Source of the DNA: an uncultured Methanosarcinales archaeon
GTDB lineage: Archaea; Nanobdellota; Nanobdellia; Woesearchaeales; UBA10107
Direction: 5' to 3'
DNA length: 39,069 bases
Assembly (NCBI GenBank): GCA_964572885.1
Contig: CAZNFC010000001.1
Location: forward strand, 1-39,069
Below the pieces are notes generated by a model. That model searched no databases and was not told the origin of the DNA. It was given only the letters and a program-made list of their open reading frames with translations. Positions 1,912 to 26,175 of the stretch are shown here, in pieces. Both the position numbers and the translations under genes were made by a program. How positions within the stretch are numbered: position 1 is the first letter of the stretch; each line of letters begins with the position of its first letter.

Positions 1912-3921
1912 TCACTCTAATGGAACCTGGCTCCATAATGTGAAATCATTGCTTGGCACATATGATTGGAATATTCCCGTCGTTCCGTAAGCCTGCTGAG
2001 CATAAGACATTCTTATATCGCTGAATCTTGAAGGAGCTCTTCCCTGGAAATAACTTGTTCCTATATGAGAACCAAATGTCTCCCATGCTTTGGTTAATAT
2101 TCTTCCCTGACCGAATCTTTCTTCTTCGTGACCTTCTGAAGTCAAAGCTCCTTTGTATCCGCCTTTTTCTTTTAGGATCTTCATATATTCTACAATATCC
2201 TTTCCTATGAATCCCTGTCCGGGAGGAAGATGAGCATGCTGTCCTGAAGCTGAATCAACGACCTGAACCTCTCCAACAATATCTTCTTTCTTGTTTACTT
2301 CAGAGATATGCTCTATCTGTTCTTTGTACCATTTCTTGAATTCAGGAACTCTCTTGTCCCATGGAAGATCAGGCCTGAAATTCTGCATCCACATTCCTAA
2401 GTGACCCGTATCTAATTCTCCCTTGATGTGTTTCTTAGCCAATTCTTTCGCTTCATTTTCTGAAACACCTGTATAATATTCATTCCTTACTTTTTGATGC
2501 GTCATAGGATCTTCAATCTCTTTTTTCGTTAATTTTTCGACCATCTTTTCTCTTGCTCCTCTTATCAAGCCTATCCATTCATCAGGATGGCTTCCATAGA
2601 ACTGCGGCCAGCTAAGTTCCGGACCTACATGGATGTCTCTCTGTTGTTTTTTAACATGTTCATTCTTCTGCGTCTCCTGCATCGCCCATATACCTGCTTC
2701 TGCATACGATTCCTTTGATTTATCTGCAGCATATTCATCAACTGGCTTGTATTTGTCTTTCATAGCTCTTGTTTCTGCTTCTTCCTGTCTCAAAGATCTT
2801 ATGCTGCTTTGAAGATTTTCTTTTCTTTTTTCCAGTTCTGTTATTTGATTCCTGTAATCAGGCACTTCACTTTTTAAATCATTTATTGCTGCTTCTTCTT
2901 TTCTTAATCTCTCCATTTCTGAATCAAAATATCTCTTTGCCTGAATATTATCCTTGACTCTTGGATCATTCATGTCTTCTTTGAGTTTATTTTCTCTTTC
3001 TTTTAATTCTTTAAAATCATATTCCGAGACCTCTTTTATTCTTGCGTTAAGTGCCTTTATCTGCTGATCTTCCTGATTAATAATCTGATCATAGTATGTT
3101 TTTTGACCTTCGAGCTGCTCTATTCTCTTTTCAGTACTATACTTGTCAAGCAAGAACATTCCTGTATCATCATATTTTTCTCTCTTGGCAATTTCGGCGA
3201 CCTGCTGCCAATTCAATTCAGATGGCTTGACGTCTTTGCCAACAAGAGGTTTTAATGTATCTTTATCATAATAGAGATAAAATTTATCTGTCTTATCGAA
3301 TGGCTGTATCTTTCCTGTATCGCTATCCACAAGCAAAGCTATCTCCTTTTCTCTCTGTCTGAAAACATCTCCTTGTTTTCTTCCTAAAGCATGCGATTCC
3401 TTATTTGCCCAGTCTGCATCAGATATATTTCTCGGGAATTCCCATGAAATGACATTCACTCCTCCACCGCCTGCGATATCTCCTACAAATTTTATCGCAT
3501 CTCTTACCTCATCAAGATTATGTTTTCTTGCTTCTTCGCTAAAACCTTGCTGTGTAAATCCGGATAAATTAGTGATATGGTTAGGCAATTCCACTCCCGT
3601 GATTCTTGCTCCGACTGCCTGCTGAATTTCCCTTATCTGATCTCTTATCTCCTCACCGTAACCTTTTGGACCGCCTCCCATCCCTCCTGCCTGGCCGCCT
3701 GCCATCATTACTAACTGAATATTTCCTGCTCCTTTCCTGAAAGCTCCCTGGACAGTCTCAAGAATTCCTCTTCCTGTAGCAGGATCTGTGTCAGGAACTG
3801 TTGCGCCGATCAGACTTATTGGAAAAATAGTTTCCTCTGGAGCGCTTCTGGAATTAGCCTGCTGTATCTCATTGTGATACTGCTGATCCATCGGTGTGTA
3901 ATACGGTCTGTCGAAATCCAT
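1912..3921 (-). CDS. large hypothetical protein: putative xylose-isomerase-like TIM-barrel halves separated by a roughly 250-aa coiled-coil insert
   Basis: 669-aa ORF and last gene of a 4-gene coupled operon. C-terminal motifs ELDTGHLGMW and VQVVDSASGQHAHLPPGQGFIGKDIVEYMKILKEKGGYKGALTSEGHEE resemble the AP-endonuclease-2/sugar-isomerase TIM-barrel metal-site pattern. The central region (about residues 250-400) is Lys/Glu-rich heptad-like sequence. The fold call is tentative. Confidence 0.75.
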   Translation of the reverse strand: MDFDRPYYTPMDQQYHNEIQQANSRSAPEETIFPISLIGATVPDTDPATGRGILETVQGAFRKGAGNIQLVMMAGGQAGGMGGGPKGYGEEIRDQIREIQQAVGARITGVELPNHITNLSGFTQQGFSEEARKHNLDEVRDAIKFVGDIAGGGGVNVISWEFPRNISDADWANKESHALGRKQGDVFRQREKEIALLVDSDTGKIQPFDKTDKFYLYYDKDTLKPLVGKDVKPSELNWQQVAEIAKREKYDDTGMFLLDKYSTEKRIEQLEGQKTYYDQIINQEDQQIKALNARIKEVSEYDFKELKERENKLKEDMNDPRVKDNIQAKRYFDSEMERLRKEEAAINDLKSEVPDYRNQITELEKRKENLQSSIRSLRQEEAETRAMKDKYKPVDEYAADKSKESYAEAGIWAMQETQKNEHVKKQQRDIHVGPELSWPQFYGSHPDEWIGLIRGAREKMVEKLTKKEIEDPMTHQKVRNEYYTGVSENEAKELAKKHIKGELDTGHLGMWMQNFRPDLPWDKRVPEFKKWYKEQIEHISEVNKKEDIVGEVQVVDSASGQHAHLPPGQGFIGKDIVEYMKILKEKGGYKGALTSEGHEEERFGQGRILTKAWETFGSHIGTSYFQGRAPSRFSDIRMSYAQQAYGTTGIFQSYVPSNDFTLWSQVPLE

Positions 3922-3922
3922 T

Positions 3923-4471
3923 TTAATTGTAATTCATTGTCGTTGAAAGCTTGTTTTTGTTTCTCTCTATTATTTTTTCTGCTTCTGACATAGCAAACAT
4001 TGCCTGCTGATTTGCCTTGTATCCTGACTGCTCTTTATTCTGTATCGCTTCTGCCCTGTTCTGGAACATATATTGTTCTTGTTTAGTAAAATAACCTCTT
4101 TCTCCTCTTTCATCAAGTTCTCTTAAATCACTTAATAATTCTGTTGCAGGTCTTCTCGCGTATTCCGAAATATTTGTCCTATATGGCTGTGCTCCTTGGT
4201 CTCTCACCAAAGGTTTTGCTTCCTCTGCGATCTCTTCCAGTGATTCTTCAGGTTTCTTCTTTTCTTTTGACTTCTCTTCTTCCTCTTCGATATCTCTTTC
4301 TTCTTTTGCTATCTCGTCAATGCTTTTCCTTATTATCTCCTCTTCTTCCTGCTTTGATTTCTTTTCTTCCTCTTCCCTTTTCTTTTTCTGCTCAGCTTCG
4401 AATTCCCTTAATCTCTCAATTCTTATTCTTGGAGGAAGTTTCTTGATCTCTTCAATAGTAAGTTCTGCCAT
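3923..4471 (-). CDS. acidic Glu/Lys-rich coiled-coil protein (182 aa), function unknown
   Basis: ATG ORF whose stop lies 1 nt from the start of the downstream gene and whose start lies 2 nt after the stop of the upstream gene. It contains a long EEEEKKSKQEEEE low-complexity segment. Confidence 0.65.
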   Translation of the reverse strand: MAELTIEEIKKLPPRIRIERLREFEAEQKKKREEEEKKSKQEEEEIIRKSIDEIAKEERDIEEEEEKSKEKKKPEESLEEIAEEAKPLVRDQGAQPYRTNISEYARRPATELLSDLRELDERGERGYFTKQEQYMFQNRAEAIQNKEQSGYKANQQAMFAMSEAEKIIERNKNKLSTTMNYN

Positions 4472-4473
4472 GA

Positions 4474-5988
4474 TTAAGGAGTCATCAATCCTCTTGCTTT
4501 CTTGAATATGGTGTATATCAATGATGTCAACTTTGCATTTCCTTTGGCCATATCTTTTCTTTTTTCCTCTATCTCTCTTGCTAATTTGATATCTGATTTT
4601 CCTCTTCCGGGAATAAAGCTTTTTGCTGCTCCTTTGAATCCTGAAACGATGTCTCCAATCGGGCCGAATGGCTTTTTGCTTTTATCACTGAACATCTCTT
4701 TCACTTTTTCTCTTGCAGAGTCCATGTTCGGAGAAGCTCCTGTATCGACAAGATTCTTGGCTAATCTGTATCTTTCTTCGTCTTCGCCGAATTTCTCCTC
4801 GTATTCTCCAAGATATTTTCTTAGATCTTCTTCAAGGAAGTCCATCGAGCTTTCTATCGAACTGTCTATGCTTTTCAGAAGTTCGAAATCTTCTGCCATC
4901 CTTACTTTTTTATAATCTGCTACCTCTTTATCTGTCCAGACATATCCTCTGAAAGTCATTTCAGCACGGCCGATATGAGTCGGTCCTCTTTGATAATCCT
5001 GACCGGTATTCATTACTGGTCTTGTCCTGAAATAGAAATGGACTAAAATGCATGATCTTGGATAACCTGGCTTTTCCGCGGGCATCTTAGCCAAGAATTC
5101 AACTTCAACGACTGAACCTTCAAATGCTCCTACGATATCTGCAGACATCTGAGTCTCAGGATCCATCCCTAATCTTTTTATATTTCTAAGATACGGCTTT
5201 ACCCAGTCAACATAAAGTTTTATCGCATTGTAATGCTGCCTTAGATAGCTTATCGTGAATTTTTTCTTTGCTTTAATCTGCTTATCAGTTGCATCTCTCC
5301 ATGCAGTGTATTGCTCTAATTTCCTTACCAAAACTGATTTTACATCTTTATTGAATTCCAATTTATCAACGTATTTTGAAACATTTTCTAATTTGAGTCC
5401 AGCAGGCGCATCAAAGAAAATAATAGGCAGTGTAGCATATCCTACTTGAGAAGCTAATCCATATACTGAACTTGCTTTCAATCCCTGCGGTCCGTTATCG
5501 ACAAAATCAATCCATAAACCTTTCAATGATTTTTCTGCGCCGTCATCAGGTGTTCCTGTCGTTTTTCCTGATGCCAGATCATAAAGTTTCTCTCTCTCAT
5601 CTAATAATTGTATGTCTCTTACTATCTGGAACATCTCTTTTACCATCTTTCCTATTGTTGCCATATATTGCGATGCAATATTCTGCTGTGCACCCAATCT
5701 TTGCTGCGCAGAACCGAAGAATGCACTTTGTTCCGATGCAGTAAATGTATCGACTATCTTTTCCACATCAGCAAATCCAAAGTCAACTAAATAATCCTTG
5801 AACCAGAAATATAATTCTTCAACTGATTGTCCAAAACTTTCATACACCATGTAATGTCTTTTGACAGGCTTAGGATAATGAGTCTCTACTAATTCATCAG
5901 GCTTGAATTTTCCTCTTACTATCTCTATCTTCTCTATATCCTTGAACTTCTTCTTTATTATCTCTTTTACTTTGTCTCTGTCTACCAT
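4474..5988 (-). CDS. conserved-looking hypothetical protein (504 aa), function unknown
   Basis: Long uninterrupted ORF with non-repetitive globular sequence, translationally coupled on both sides. I recognise no family. Confidence 0.75.
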   Translation of the reverse strand: MVDRDKVKEIIKKKFKDIEKIEIVRGKFKPDELVETHYPKPVKRHYMVYESFGQSVEELYFWFKDYLVDFGFADVEKIVDTFTASEQSAFFGSAQQRLGAQQNIASQYMATIGKMVKEMFQIVRDIQLLDEREKLYDLASGKTTGTPDDGAEKSLKGLWIDFVDNGPQGLKASSVYGLASQVGYATLPIIFFDAPAGLKLENVSKYVDKLEFNKDVKSVLVRKLEQYTAWRDATDKQIKAKKKFTISYLRQHYNAIKLYVDWVKPYLRNIKRLGMDPETQMSADIVGAFEGSVVEVEFLAKMPAEKPGYPRSCILVHFYFRTRPVMNTGQDYQRGPTHIGRAEMTFRGYVWTDKEVADYKKVRMAEDFELLKSIDSSIESSMDFLEEDLRKYLGEYEEKFGEDEERYRLAKNLVDTGASPNMDSAREKVKEMFSDKSKKPFGPIGDIVSGFKGAAKSFIPGRGKSDIKLAREIEEKRKDMAKGNAKLTSLIYTIFKKARGLMTP

Positions 5989-23129: not shown

Positions 23130-24247
23130 TTATATGTGTTTCGCATCTATATCTGTGAAATTTTTGATATACCTGTCGAGCTCGATATCTGAAATCTCGC
23201 TTGGAAATGATAGTTCTATTTCTTTGCCTAATCGTTTCCTTAGCTTGTAAGTATTGGCTTGCTTTGCGTATGCCATCCAGCCTTGAAGTCGCTCGTATAT
23301 CTCATCATAATCAATTACTTTGGAATCGTAATCTTGCTTGAACTGTTTTATCCTTCTCTTTGTTTTTCTCAGATTTGTCCTTCTTAGAAGTTTGTGGTAA
23401 TAAAACGATCTAAAGCCCAAGAAATTTATTCCTCGCTCTAATTTGATTATTTTCGATTTATTTGGATGCAGTTCTATAAGAAGATTTTTCCTAATAAACT
23501 CGTTGATTTTATCTTTGTAGTATTCAAGCATATTCTTATCGTTATGCAAAATCACGAAGTCATCGACATATCTTATGTAATATTTTACTTTTAATTCGTG
23601 TTTTACAAAATAGTCTAATTCATTTAGATAGACATTGGCGAAGAATTGGCTCGTTAAGTTGCCAAGGGGCATCCCCCTCTGGGAAGAGCGTGTAGAGAGA
23701 GAGAGAGAGAGCAGTTTGAAAGTATTTTTTTGATTAGCCAAATGATTCTATTGTCCTTAATCTTATTCTTAATTATACTGATAAGAACACCATGGTCAAC
23801 TTCTTCAAAATAGTGCTTTATATCTGCCTTCAATACATAGGTTTCTTTTGTATTATTTCTGCTTGCTTTCCTTTTGAAGTAATCAAATCTATTTAACGCG
23901 TTTAAAGTTCCTTTGCCTATCTGATTGGCAAATGAATCGTAGATGAAGCTTTTGCGAAAAATAGGTTCAATGATGTTACATAGAGCATGGTGAACAACTC
24001 TATCTCTGAAATCAGACTTGCTTATCTTCCTTGTCTTTGGATCCCTTACTATGAAATTAACTAATGGTTTTGGTATATAAGAATGTAGCAACAATTCGGT
24101 TCTTAGTTGTTCAAGATTTTCTTTGAGATTATTTTCAAATTCAATAACATATGGTTTCAATGTTTTTCTTCTTCTTGCTTTCTTGAAAGCGAGCTCTAAA
24201 TTCTCGTAAGAACAAAGATTTTCAAATAAATTTCCGTGTCGCTTCAT
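23130..24247 (-). CDS. DGR reverse transcriptase, interrupted by a frameshift inside a (CT)9 tract
   Basis: Track ORFs 23654..24370 and 23130..23741 together carry all RT motifs. These are FIVRDPKTRKIS and FRDRVVHHAL (motifs 1-2), SFANQIGKGTLNAL (3), GMPLGNLTSQFFANVYLNELD (4, with the DGR-typical LGxxxSQ), YIRYVDDFVIL (5) and the thumb LQGWMAYAKQANTYKLR. The start is placed at ATG 24247 (MKRHGNLFENL...). Removing one CT unit gives a continuous reading frame of about 371 aa. Confidence 0.9.
23695..23712 (-). repeat. (CT)9 dinucleotide microsatellite (AG9 on + strand) at the RT frameshift point
   Basis: agagagagagagagagag read directly. It encodes the SLSLSL stretch seen in both overlapping ORFs. 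Confidence 0.95.
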
Positions 24248-24282
24248 TGATAAGTATAAAGTCTTAGTATTCAAAGCCATTT

Positions 24283-24366
24283 CACGAGAGTGGCCATTGT
24301 TGTTGTCGAAGTTGTTGTTGCCATTGACATGGAACCTACCGTTGTTGTGGTTGAACCTGACAGCCC
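24283..24366 (-). repeat. DGR template repeat (TR), AAC/AAT-rich
   Basis: Coding-strand sequence: GGGCTGTCAGGTTC AAC CAC AAC AAC GGT AGG TTC CAT GTC AAT GGC AAC AAC AAC TTC GAC AAC AAC AAT GGC CAC TCT CGT G. It lies 36 nt upstream of the RT ATG. I count about 26 adenines by hand. Confidence 0.9.
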
Positions 24367-24472
24367 ACACCCTTATAGCCAGTTTATTGTATAATCACTG
24401 CCACTTCACAGTTTCGTTTCCTACTCAGTGTTGTAGCTGCATTTTATAACCAACAATGTGTCATAATACGCA

Positions 24473-24520
24473 ATTTCGGCAGAGCCGAAATGCGCCCATT
24501 TGGACTTTGTCCAAATTGGG
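24473..24520 (-). promoter_or_regulatory. two adjacent stem-loops in the VR-TR spacer (candidate DGR RNA 5' structure or target-gene terminator)
   Basis: ATTTCGGC-aga-GCCGAAAT (24473-24491; 8-bp stem) and CCCATTTGGAC-ttt-GTCCAAATTGGG (24495-24520; 11 bp with a one-base bulge). Both are unusually GC-rich for this window. Confidence 0.5.
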
Positions 24521-24600
24521 AACTGACGTGTGGCCTCGAATTTTCACCAATGAATTGTTTCATCAGCTCAAACCAAGACAAATAAGAAAATGTTAGAATC

Positions 24601-24608
24601 TATTTAAA
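24601..24608 (-). promoter_or_regulatory. TATA-like box (TTTAAATA on minus strand) just downstream of the target-gene stop; candidate promoter of the TR-RT transcript
   Basis: Same box type as the gene promoters in this window. It lies about 235 nt upstream of the TR, and there is no properly spaced box directly upstream of the RT ATG. Confidence 0.4.
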
Positions 24609-24616
24609 AATACTGC

Positions 24617-25354
24617 TTATTTTTTGCGTTTCGCGCCTTCGGCGCTCACAGACGAACGCACCCCACGAGAGAGGCCAAAGTTGCCGAAGTCGAAGTCGTC
24701 GTAGCCATAGACATGGAACCTACCGTTGATGTGGTCGAACCTGACAGCCCTTTCAGGGTATGATTTTCTTGAGCTTTGGTCTGGTGTCCAAAGTGCAATC
24801 TTTTCTGGATTCATTTGAGATAAATGTTCAAGTGTTTCTGCGATTTTCTTATCACTATCTTTTGTATTAAACAATGCTTGCAAATAAGCAACTGTTTCTT
24901 TTGATTTTAATGCTTCTGTTAATCTTGTTCCTTCATATCTTGGAACAACTTTAAGTTCAATTACTGTCGGCTTTACAATAGTGCTTCCGAAATTATGAGT
25001 TATTTTTGCGCCTAAATCATTTGGATTATATGAATTTCTTGTGCTTGTTACTTCCCAATTATCGTTGAAATCTTTTCTTAAGGAGTCAAGGACTTCTTTT
25101 GGAGCTGAAACAGCTCTGTATACATCAGGAGCTGAAATCATTTGTCTTTTTTGCTCATTAAAATATGCAATCCAGTCCTTTTGCGTTAAACGTCTTCCGT
25201 CTAATGCTGGTAAAGAATCTATTGAAACTAATCCATTTGAAGAAACTGGCAATGAATTTAAGTATTGAACAACTGCTTGGGATAAATCTCCCTTTCTAGC
25301 CTTTTGAGCTAATTCGTATGCTTTGTTGCTTACTGGTATTTTGAGTGTTTTCAT
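24617..25354 (-). CDS. DGR variable (target) protein, 245 aa, VR at C-terminus; no obvious signal peptide
   Basis: ATG ORF with an AGGTGG Shine-Dalgarno sequence about 8 nt upstream. The C-terminal ...ERAVRFDHINGRFHVYGYDDFDFGNFGLSRGVRSS corresponds to the TR-encoded AVRFNHNNGRFHVNGNNNFDNNNGHSR. Confidence 0.9.
   Translation of the reverse strand: MKTLKIPVSNKAYELAQKARKGDLSQAVVQYLNSLPVSSNGLVSIDSLPALDGRRLTQKDWIAYFNEQKRQMISAPDVYRAVSAPKEVLDSLRKDFNDNWEVTSTRNSYNPNDLGAKITHNFGSTIVKPTVIELKVVPRYEGTRLTEALKSKETVAYLQALFNTKDSDKKIAETLEHLSQMNPEKIALWTPDQSSRKSYPERAVRFDHINGRFHVYGYDDFDFGNFGLSRGVRSSVSAEGAKRKK
24626..24659 (-). promoter_or_regulatory. GC-rich hairpin just 3' of VR (IMH/cruciform-like target-recognition element candidate)
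   Basis: Coding strand GCGTT cgtctgtga GCGCC gaa GGCGC ga AACGC. The inner 5-bp GC stem with a GAA loop is at 24633-24645 and the outer arms are at 24626-24630 / 24655-24659. It is present next to the VR only, not next to the TR. Confidence 0.55.
24664..24750 (-). repeat. DGR variable repeat (VR)
   Basis: Coding strand GGGCTGTCAGGTTC GAC CAC ATC AAC GGT AGG TTC CAT GTC TAT GGC TAC GAC GAC TTC GAC TTC GGC AAC TTT GGC CTC TCT CGT G. It has 11 substitutions versus the TR, all at TR adenines, plus one extra codon. Confidence 0.9.
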
Positions 25355-25474: not shown

Positions 25475-25615
25475 ATGAAGATGCTCAGGATAGATGACAA
25501 AATCGCTAAGGAGCTGGATGAGCTTAAAGAGTTCTACAGAGTCAATTCATATGATGAAGTCATCAGAATGTTAATCAAGAAAATCAACGGCGAAACAATA
25601 GAAATAATCGTATAA
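25475..25615 (+). CDS. small VapB/RHH-like antitoxin paralogue (46 aa)
   Basis: Hand translation gives MKMLRIDDKIAKELDELKEFYRVNSYDEVIRMLIKKINGETIEIIV. It shares the I.L.(D/E)..(K).L...K.....(Y/F)DE.IR.L pattern with the next ORF and is below the ORF-track cut-off. Confidence 0.55.
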   Translation: MKMLRIDDKIAKELDELKEFYRVNSYDEVIRMLIKKINGETIEIIV

Positions 25616-25619
25616 CAAA

Positions 25620-25820
25620 ATGGCAACAACAATAGCGCTAAAGGAAGAAACGAAAGACATTTTGGAGCATGCAAAAGAAGAGTTAAAAGCAGAAACTTTT
25701 GATGAAGCAATAAGGAAATTAGTCATCAACATGAAAAGGACGAGAATCTCTTTCTTTGGGATAGGGAAAGGAAAGATCAAGGGAGAATTTGTGAGGGAAG
25801 AAATTGACCGTTTTGCTTGA
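25620..25820 (+). CDS. vapB: VapB-type antitoxin
   Basis: MATTIALKEETKDILEHAKEELKAETFDEAIRKLV... is typical of archaeal small antitoxins. It overlaps the PIN toxin gene by 17 nt. Confidence 0.65.
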   Translation: MATTIALKEETKDILEHAKEELKAETFDEAIRKLVINMKRTRISFFGIGKGKIKGEFVREEIDRFA

Positions 25821-26175
25821 TTCTTGGGCTTGGATTGAATATATCAAGGGCTCTAAATTCGGAAACGAAGTTAGGAGATATATAGAGGACGATGAAGAAA
25901 TAATAATCAGTTCAATAAATGTTTCAGAGATATATAGAAAACTTCTTGTAGATATGCCTGATGATGCAGACAAAATTATTACGATGGTATTGAATAGGTC
26001 TTTCTTTGTTTTTTCTGATGTTGAAATATCTCTGAATGCTGCCAAAATAAAGCATGAAAAAAAGATGGGCATGGCTGATGCAATTGTATTGGCGACAGCG
26101 ATGTCACATAAAGCAACAGTTATTACAGGAGATAATGATTTCAGAGGATTGGACAATGTCAAAATCATATCTTAA
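25804..26175 (+). CDS. vapC: PIN-domain ribonuclease toxin VapC
   Basis: VLLDSWAWIEY (first acidic Asp), SINVSEIY, MGMADAIVLATA and VITGDNDF give the four-acidic-residue PIN layout. The start codon is TTG. Confidence 0.85.
   Translation: MTVLLDSWAWIEYIKGSKFGNEVRRYIEDDEEIIISSINVSEIYRKLLVDMPDDADKIITMVLNRSFFVFSDVEISLNAAKIKHEKKMGMADAIVLATAMSHKATVITGDNDFRGLDNVKIIS

Follow-up and report, generated by a model that had tools for sequence, protein, structure and literature searches.

The window analysed here (the whole 39,069-nt stretch of contig CAZNFC010000001.1, GenBank assembly GCA_964572885.1) carries a diversity-generating retroelement (DGR), and the host of this element is a Woesearchaeota/Nanoarchaeota-like DPANN archaeon. 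Taken as a whole, the observations are best explained, at a probability of roughly 80%, by an accessory-free chromosomal DGR of the nanoarchaeal class whose reverse transcriptase (RT) gene is off at a (CT)9 tract, a state that slipped-strand changes in tract length could reverse. The cassette comprises, in order, a target gene with a C-terminal variable repeat (VR), an initiation of mutagenic homing sequence (IMH), a GAA-loop hairpin, the RT-16 RNA motif, the template repeat (TR), the IMH counterpart of the TR (IMH*), and the RT gene. As judged from sequence, its identity as a nanoarchaeal-class DGR is secure, and the element reads as one with past activity that is "off" as assembled, with a reversible repeat-length switch as the likely cause.

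Template and variable repeats

The repeats and the gene that carries the VR are located as follows.

24366 to 24283, reverse strand: TR, 84 nt (26 A, 24 C, 18 G, and 16 T), with 10 AAY codons
24664 to 24750, reverse strand (read from 24750 to 24664): VR, 87 nt, near the C-terminus of the target open reading frame (ORF)
24617 to 25354, reverse strand: target gene, 245 aa, the ORF carrying the VR near its C-terminus

An earlier note on this DNA had proposed, from a hand alignment of about 84 nt, a DGR TR/VR pair with 11 substitutions, all at some of roughly 26 template adenines, none at C, G, or T, and concentrated in AAY codons. The pair was recovered by an independent repeat search (family D1; 62 nt, 90% identity) and by local alignment, with each possible placement of one 3-nt gap tried. 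The best alignments with one such gap contain 11 mismatches, 11 of 11 at TR adenines (which do number 26 in 84 nt) and none at C, G, or T, so that the non-adenine mismatches that the earlier note had said would overturn its proposal did not appear on recounting. The changes comprise five to six A>G and five to six A>T, varying with gap placement, and the probability of 11 random sites all falling on A is 4.2e-7. In the target reading frame, the 10 AAY codons hold 20 of the 26 TR adenines and 10 of the 11 substitutions (the remaining one being CAC>CTC), and the translations of TR and VR, AVRFNHNNGRFHVNGNNNFDNNNGHSR and AVRFDHINGRFHVYGYDDFDFGNFGLSR, are identical to the peptides written earlier. 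The intervals of the hand alignment stand as well, although the one-codon gap that they and the peptides imply had been left unstated.

The proposal of a DGR pair is further borne out by the remaining hallmarks tested, every one of which is present except an accessory protein: the VR lies in a target ORF, IMH and IMH* are accompanied by a hairpin, and the adjacent RT has the [IL]GxxxSQ and YxDD motifs, the RT being matched across both halves of a gene that is frameshifted as assembled. The adenine-specific pattern shows past mutagenic retrohoming of the window's element, which upholds one part of the earlier statement that the element has been active; since the RT is out of frame as assembled, that statement is limited to the past and does not extend to present activity. 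A suggested 5-nt extension of the repeat at its 3' end, with three more A-to-G changes (GGGTG against AAATG), is replaced by a fixed difference between IMH and IMH*. Extra mutagenesis 3' of the repeat was ruled out because R230 and G231, the residues encoded by the IMH here, show conservation of at least 90% across the 17 members of the target family, and TGGGGT recurs in the VRs of other cassettes.

The VR equals the TR plus one codon (87 versus 84 nt), and the gap is placed equally well anywhere inside the AAC-AAC-AAT tract. This TR segment has the same length as in the orthologous TRs of two related loci (L002 and L092), whose own VRs align to their own TRs gap-free. The passages on length variation in Wu et al. 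(PMC5758913) report that TR and VR differ in length in about 7% of DGRs, usually by a multiple of 3 and in 74% of cases next to AAC, and ascribe this to slippage of the RT at repeated AAC. For the extra VR codon, the best explanation is either such slippage or subsequent loss of one AAC from the TR; as a known DGR by-product according to those passages, the one-codon indel is not evidence against DGR activity. Repeat searches of the 39-kb window yielded neither a third TR/VR copy nor a further VR, and no second RT was found in it.

A reverse transcriptase out of frame at a dinucleotide repeat

The RT gene lies directly 3' of the TR, in the following parts.

23654 to 24280, reverse strand: 5' part of the RT (fingers), RVT_1 profile positions 7-106, with a premature stop after the frameshift
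23130 to 23693, reverse strand: 3' part of the RT, RVT_1 positions 111-204, containing LGNLTSQ, YVDD, and the thumb and read in frame -1 with respect to the 5' part
23694 to 23711, reverse strand: (CT)9 tract, the site of the frame break, in the loop of the RT that separates WLIKKIL from GMPLGNLTSQ

The 3' part corresponds to a separate 180-aa database protein (P0144). Frame 1 is homologous to RTs up to ...WLIKKILSNC and frame 2 from ...SSQR onward (GMPLGNLTSQ...YVDD), and on this basis the lesion is assigned to the CT tract; a frame break at the A7 or G5 runs was considered less likely because the RT homology brackets the CT tract. Removal of one CT yields a 382-aa RT with LGNLTSQ and YVDD that shares 60-68% identity with hundreds of intact RTs of 355-440 aa from Nanoarchaeota/Woesearchaeota, and the loop of the repaired protein ends ...SSQRGMPLGN, resembling the commonest loops of the family (...SSSQxRGMPLGN). 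Outside the repeat, both halves are open and every invariant family residue is kept. With the RT out of frame at (CT)9, a full-length RT would not be made from the gene as assembled, i.e., the element would be "off". The tract is the longest simple repeat in the window and the sole dinucleotide run of more than five units in its 39 kb, and in Markov simulations (n = 300) a dinucleotide run never exceeded seven units; (CT)9 is thus an exceptional intragenic tract of the kind associated with phase variation.

The sequence following (CT)9 (CTACACG-CTCTTCC, 23676-23695, reverse strand) is similar, with a 3-nt gap, to the Illumina TruSeq adapter (CTACACGACGCTCTTCC). The similarity was judged coincidental, and adapter contamination was rejected, because the stretch encodes TRSSQR, which fits the ...SSSQxR-GMPLGN loops after one CT is removed. 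The Met of GMPLGNLTSQ (ATG at 23666-23668) is invariant in the RT family and provides a ready start codon for the C-terminal half of any split gene; the Bordetella phage RT has L at this position.

Repeat tracts in related reverse transcriptase genes

Interruption of the RT at this loop recurs among relatives of the element. In an orthologous cassette (Woesearchaeota metagenome-assembled genome GCA_016180285.1 and Logan assemblies), the RT is split at the same loop by G12, and another sample of the same cassette has G11 as the sole difference over 1.7 kb. A sister species is represented by six contigs (five ENA assemblies and one JGI metagenome), among which the RT is intact with (GA)13 in one, split with (GA)12 in three, and split with (GA)11 in two; over 2.4 kb, the seven other differences among five of these contigs all lie in the VR, five of the seven at TR adenines, and the TR is identical across all six, so that the population pattern expected of a DGR (variation confined to the VR, with an invariant TR) is seen there. 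At the DNA level, internal RT genes of three further species are split in the same loop at G9, G9, and G11 (alternatively GAG5). Out-of-frame tract lengths were reproduced in two to seven independent assemblies each: (GA)12 in three, (GA)11 in two, and G9 in seven and in six. Loci L101-L123 come from one groundwater site (ERZ27254xxx, ERZ4903xxx, and IMG 3300025317 and 3300025323).

In intact homologues, the loop is mostly 8-10 residues long; less often it contains EREREREREG, or GGG or GGGG with R-T/S after it. For the RT with the ER repeat (P0033), the cluster at 90% contains full-length proteins of 370 aa together with truncated proteins of 202, 209, and 172 aa, which are identical apart from the number of ER repeats before the frame change. 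In the AlphaFold model of the intact P0033 RT (pLDDT, the predicted local distance difference test score, of 82), the ER-repeat loop is coil with a pLDDT below 50.

The tracts are also enriched in RT genes generally. Across 80 reference RT loci (L005-L084; 455 kb, 36.5% GC), 11 of the 22 long G/C or dinucleotide tracts lie in RT genes, which make up 18% of the sequence (p = 7e-4), and three more lie at most 31 nt upstream of the RT. Within the RT, the tracts cluster at approximately residues 142, 187-194, 254, and 282 and are all G or AG on the coding strand, and a G7 tract (L080) coincides with another RT frame break. Examples include G11 at 3417 (L038), (AG)10 at 3407 (L045), G9 at 3776 (L064) and 3710 (L069), the G7 at 3799 (L080), and G9-G10 at about 2970 in L036, L053, and L066; tracts also occur at the RT N-terminus. 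These G or AG tracts are often followed by CGA(A/T), even at differing sites (a shared Gn-CGA context). Frame changes near residues 285-315 are found without a long tract in three RT genes (L050 at about 3032, L051 at about 2341-2353, and L073 at about 3858-3870), and these may be ordinary pseudogenes or assembly errors.

A search with the C-terminal half of the RT returned about 120 clusters of 170-200-aa proteins, many of them on contigs of 17-200 kb; 79 of the 120 have the Met of GMPLGN as their first residue, and for about a dozen the start lies at a poly-Gly stretch of the loop. This search is unusable as a measure of how frequent split RTs are, as its candidate step evidently favours proteins of similar length, and the reference-genome scan of RTs, which keeps the best-scoring matches, is biased in the opposite direction. 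No description of repeat-switched or frameshifted DGR RTs was found in the literature searched, and the passages of two large DGR surveys that matched the search (one of them PMC5758913) make no mention of broken RTs.

Weighing a reversible switch against other readings

A reversible switch is preferred to terminal decay because relatives have length-polymorphic poly-G and (GA)n tracts, with intact and broken alleles in one species; decay and random sequencing error are likewise disfavoured by the fixed loop positions, the length polymorphism, the coexisting intact allele, the lack of other lesions, and the enrichment of tracts in RT genes. Several observations nevertheless count against the reading preferred here. 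The (CT)9 tract is CT on the coding strand, versus G or AG in 14 of 14 tracts in or next to the RT genes of relatives; the lineage of the window has been sampled once, as one contig without reads, and repeats are error-prone, notably long homopolymers such as the G11 and G12 of the orthologue; and intact and broken alleles of the same RT are known from one species only. Two relatives have one identical out-of-frame length in all six to seven assemblies, and such a fixed length fits a stable broken allele or recoding as well as it does fast switching. In addition, the cassette has no Avd-like or other accessory gene and no spare ORF, and the target protein has no sequence match in the PDB, no Foldseek match at E <= 0.001 in the PDB, and none in BFVD.

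The alternative of no DGR at all, in which a coding segment was simply duplicated and then diverged and chance produced the adenine pattern, is refuted by the improbability of adenine-only mismatches (p = 4e-7) and has a negligible claim given an adjacent DGR-type RT, IMH/IMH*, hairpin, and RT-16 in canonical order and the same cassette in a published DGR. A fossil element, in which the RT is a pseudogene by frameshift, the VR is frozen, and the TR/VR length difference is further decay, is unlikely. Codon indels beside AAC repeats are normal DGR products according to the passages on them in Wu et al. (PMC5758913), which speaks against the unequal length of TR and VR as a mark of decay. The out-of-frame RT, the want of a second sample with ongoing variation, and one relative in which the VR is identical in all contigs with the broken G9 allele (P0233) do accord with a fossil, but the sole lesion falls inside a simple repeat between two otherwise sound halves, many relatives have length-variable tracts at the same loop (one species with an intact allele), and two strains of another relative (P0192), both with an out-of-frame G9, differ at 10 VR sites, nine of them at TR adenines, versus five sites in the other 3.9 kb. 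Recoding, by which transcriptional slippage or ribosomal frameshifting would yield a full-length RT from an out-of-frame gene and the split would represent a working RT at a low, tuned level, gains from out-of-frame alleles that are fixed over many assemblies in two species, yet with a VR diversified between strains of one, as well as from at least 79 distinct C-half clusters and from the nature of long homopolymers as sites of polymerase slippage. It is nonetheless rather improbable: in-frame intact alleles of the same gene exist, no canonical slippery heptamer is present at (CT)9, and the correction needed is +1 nt at some loci (the window, L001, and L120) and -1 nt at others (L003, L102, L107, and L114). 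As the required corrections differ in sign between loci, a single programmed -1 ribosomal frameshift was rejected as a general rule. Less probable still is an assembly or sequencing error that conceals a real tract of (CT)8 or (CT)11 and an intact RT. The single contig without reads leaves room for it, but consensus assemblies seldom contain a dinucleotide repeat that is wrong by 2 nt, and the reproduction of out-of-frame lengths across independent assemblies of relatives indicates that such states are real in this RT family.

Homing signals and the RT-16 RNA

The remaining signals of the cassette, and the RT-16 matches in related loci, are as follows.

24660 to 24665, reverse strand: IMH core TGGGGT at the 3' end of the VR (context CG-TGGGGT-G), the same motif following the VR in 12 other cassettes
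24633 to 24645, reverse strand: GC-rich hairpin GCGCC-GAA-GGCGC (fold prediction), inside the target ORF, 20 nt past the IMH
24601 to 24610, reverse strand: TATA-like box TTTTTAAATA, putative promoter of the DGR RNA, with the RT-16 start about 27 nt downstream
24370 to 24578, reverse strand: RT-16 RNA motif (Rfam RF03019), located after the target stop codon and running up to the start of the TR
24279 to 24284, reverse strand: IMH* TGAAAT at the 3' end of the TR (context CG-TGAAAT-G), overlapping the RT start ATG (24280-24278)
RT-16 in relatives: L002, 6793-6924; L092, 3304-3438; L101, 3191-3313; L107, 1703-1832; L114, 1662-1812; L120, 1666-1811

The position of IMH* is occupied by TGGAAT in three related loci (L002, L092, and L101). 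An outer stem lengthens the predicted hairpin to 24626-24659, and 12 related VRs are followed by TGGGGT and, 13-20 nt on, by a GC-rich stem of 5-8 bp with a GAA loop; among relatives, nine different stem sequences all keep both the pairing and the GAA loop, i.e., the hairpin covaries. The IMH TGGGGT, the IMH* TGGAAT, and a target-gene hairpin whose loop is a GRA trinucleotide are described in the passages of Paul et al. (2015; PMC4372165) on the DGRs of the DUSEL4 Nanoarchaeota.

The RT-16 match scores 62.0 bits against a gathering score of 50 and spans model positions 1-158 of 158 (Rfam covariance model). Of 20 reference RT loci, 17 contain RT-16, as do five further related cassettes. In every cassette with a mapped TR, no more than about 4 nt separate the end of RT-16 from the start of the TR, a position that puts RT-16 in the template RNA of the DGR. 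In Weinberg et al. (2017; PMC5737381), RT-10 is the only such motif connected with a DGR (in the BPP-1 spacer 3' of the TR), the other RT motifs being a matter of speculation. In Avd-less DGRs, the template RNA probably has this orphan Rfam motif, RT-16, as its structured 5' domain.

The TATA-like box would be the promoter of the DGR RNA by analogy with standard archaeal promoter geometry, and in L002, L092, L026, and L085 a similar box, TTTTTTATA(C/T), lies after the stop codon of the target. A small stem-loop, GCCACTCTCGTGAAATGGC, at 24276-24294 (reverse strand) covers the 3' end of the TR, IMH*, and the RT start codon, and its counterpart in L002 is stronger (GGGCATTCC-CGT-GGAATGGCC); this element could have a role in priming or in the coupling of translation and templating.

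The variable protein

Profile searches with the target protein gave no Pfam or NCBIfam match. Its family has 17 members, including 16 homologues of about 250 aa that are all from DPANN-type metagenomes and have no Pfam domains, and hypervariability across these members is confined to ERAVxFxxxxGRFHVxGxxxxDxxxGxSRGV, the variable positions being the AAY codons of the TR. The AlphaFold model of the target has a pLDDT of 85 and a predicted template modelling score of 0.76. Its best structure matches in the PDB are weak ones to C-type-lectin-like domains (Foldseek; probability of at most 0.47, TM 0.33-0.47), with AvpA, Mtd, and TvpA absent from the top 50, and neither sequence nor structural similarity places the target among the C-type-lectin-fold variable proteins (Mtd/TvpA/AvpA). 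A divergent C-type-lectin fold is plausible for the target. According to Handa et al. (2016; PMC5006420), eight of nine nanoarchaeal variable proteins are of unassigned fold, and the IMH encodes a non-variant strand (RFxGV in AvpA); the IMH of the window encodes SRGV, and a short strand in the AlphaFold model starts at G231.

Among target homologues, one contig (L086) has tandem paralogues at 3426-3962 and 4001-4582, each with a VR, TGGGGT, and a TCTGC-GAA-GCAGA hairpin, and there is no RT on the retrieved part of that contig. In L091 and L095, the target homologue has no adjacent RT or RT-16. The targets of all three may be remote or orphan.

Comparison with known systems

The closest intact RT (68% identity) is that of the single-cell Nanoarchaeota genome SCGC AAA011-G17 (contig AQRL01000028), from which DGRs of this class were originally reported. 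Its cassette arranges a homologous target, RT-16, TR, and RT as in the window, and 9 of its 10 TR/VR mismatches fall on A. The window differs from DGRs of this type in a VR one codon longer than the TR and in an RT that is out of frame at (CT)9. With the DUSEL4 Nanoarchaeota DGRs, as described in the passages on them in PMC4372165, it shares the order of target-VR, hairpin, TR, and RT, a homologous target, the IMH TGGGGT, the lack of a clear Avd, and a GRA triloop hairpin (GAA in the window) inside the target gene; the IMH* is TGAAAT in the window and TGGAAT in theirs (one G>A). The element thus appears, on its sequence, to have every defining feature of the DUSEL4-type nanoarchaeal class save one IMH* base. 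Term searches of PMC4372165 found neither the RT-16/TR adjacency nor repeat tracts in the RT in the passages returned.

The DGR of Bordetella phage BPP-1 (mtd-avd-TR-brt) is alike in adenine-specific transfer from an AAY-rich TR to a VR, in IMH/IMH*, in a GC-rich hairpin after the VR, and in an RT with an IGxxxSQ-type motif. In contrast, the window element is archaeal and chromosomal, has no Avd, and has a TR that abuts the RT start codon; RT-16 lies 5' of its TR, whereas RT-10 lies in the BPP-1 spacer 3' of the TR (PMC5737381), and its target fold is not assigned, whereas that of BPP-1 is a C-type lectin of the formylglycine-generating enzyme type. As for Rfam RT-16 itself (RF03019; PMC5737381), the likeness consists of a full-length match above the gathering score, located upstream of an RT gene. 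AvpA, a nanoarchaeal DGR variable protein of solved structure (PMC5006420), resembles the window's target in being a small archaeal protein with a VR near the C-terminus and a non-variant, IMH-encoded strand after it (RFxGV in AvpA, SRGV in the window), but the target has no sequence match to any PDB chain and no structure match to AvpA. The contingency loci of Haemophilus, Neisseria, and Campylobacter are similar in that an intragenic poly-G or dinucleotide tract differs in length between near-identical genomes and places the ORF in or out of frame, as seen in the relatives; they differ in that the host here is a DPANN archaeon, the gene is the RT of a hypermutation system rather than a surface or restriction-modification gene, and any switching here is putative.

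Genomic neighbourhood and sampling

The genes next to the cassette encode an Lhr helicase and a VapB-like/PIN pair. A toxin-antitoxin-like module (25480-26175, forward strand) lies immediately upstream of the target gene; in it, a PIN-domain protein (E = 8e-18) comes after two small VapB/RHH-like ORFs (weak Pfam matches). A cellular archaeal chromosome is indicated by nearby genes for a Cbf5-type pseudouridine synthase and for ribosomal proteins S19e and L31e. Avd or another accessory protein is present in about 74% of DGRs and is not universal. The accessory-free cassette fits architecture A as set out in the corresponding passages of Wu et al. (PMC5758913).

Searches for the same lineage elsewhere returned only the one contig from the protein database, six distant loci from the metagenome scan, and none from the viral-contig pattern scan. 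In two otherwise identical contigs of relatives (L112 and L107), sharp divergence begins at about position 3093 of L112, with dozens of differences, mostly at third-codon-position spacing, in a gene for a YfhO-like membrane protein that comes right after the RT, a pattern suggestive of recombination or of a surface gene that varies between strains.

Proposed mechanism and significance

By analogy with BPP-1, one transcript would carry RT-16, the TR, and the RT mRNA and would be reverse-transcribed across the TR with misincorporation opposite adenines, after which the cDNA would replace the VR, with the IMH and the hairpin directing the replacement. A ligand-binding surface would thereby be recoded at up to 16 codons (about 1e15 theoretical proteins, by arithmetic). 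Slipped-strand changes in the length of the (CT)9 tract, in a disordered loop, would turn the RT on and off in the manner of phase variation. The wider proposition, that DPANN DGR RTs employ hypermutable tracts (poly-G, (GA)n, and (CT)n) in tolerant surface loops as an on/off switch and that RT-16 is the 5' domain of their template RNA, is evenly balanced at present.

The TR/VR pair itself is one more example of a described archaeal DGR class. The repeat interruption of the RT and the RT-16/TR adjacency, by comparison, are class-wide features of which no description was found in the literature searched. For accessory-free DGRs, RT-16 offers a concrete candidate for an RNA element that may stand in for priming of the Bordetella type, which depends on Avd and the spacer, and a C-terminal half that could start at the GMPLGN Met raises the mere possibility of an RT made as two polypeptides. 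If the switch is a true one, it would account for many environmental DGRs that appear inactive or are missed, as RT-based detection pipelines would meet two half-genes. Two bet-hedging strategies, phase variation and targeted hypermutation, would then be linked, with a stochastic switch set atop the mutagenic system such that an RT in the off state would freeze a successful allele of the variable protein as RT-on siblings keep diversifying. The element in the window would be an example of the off phase.

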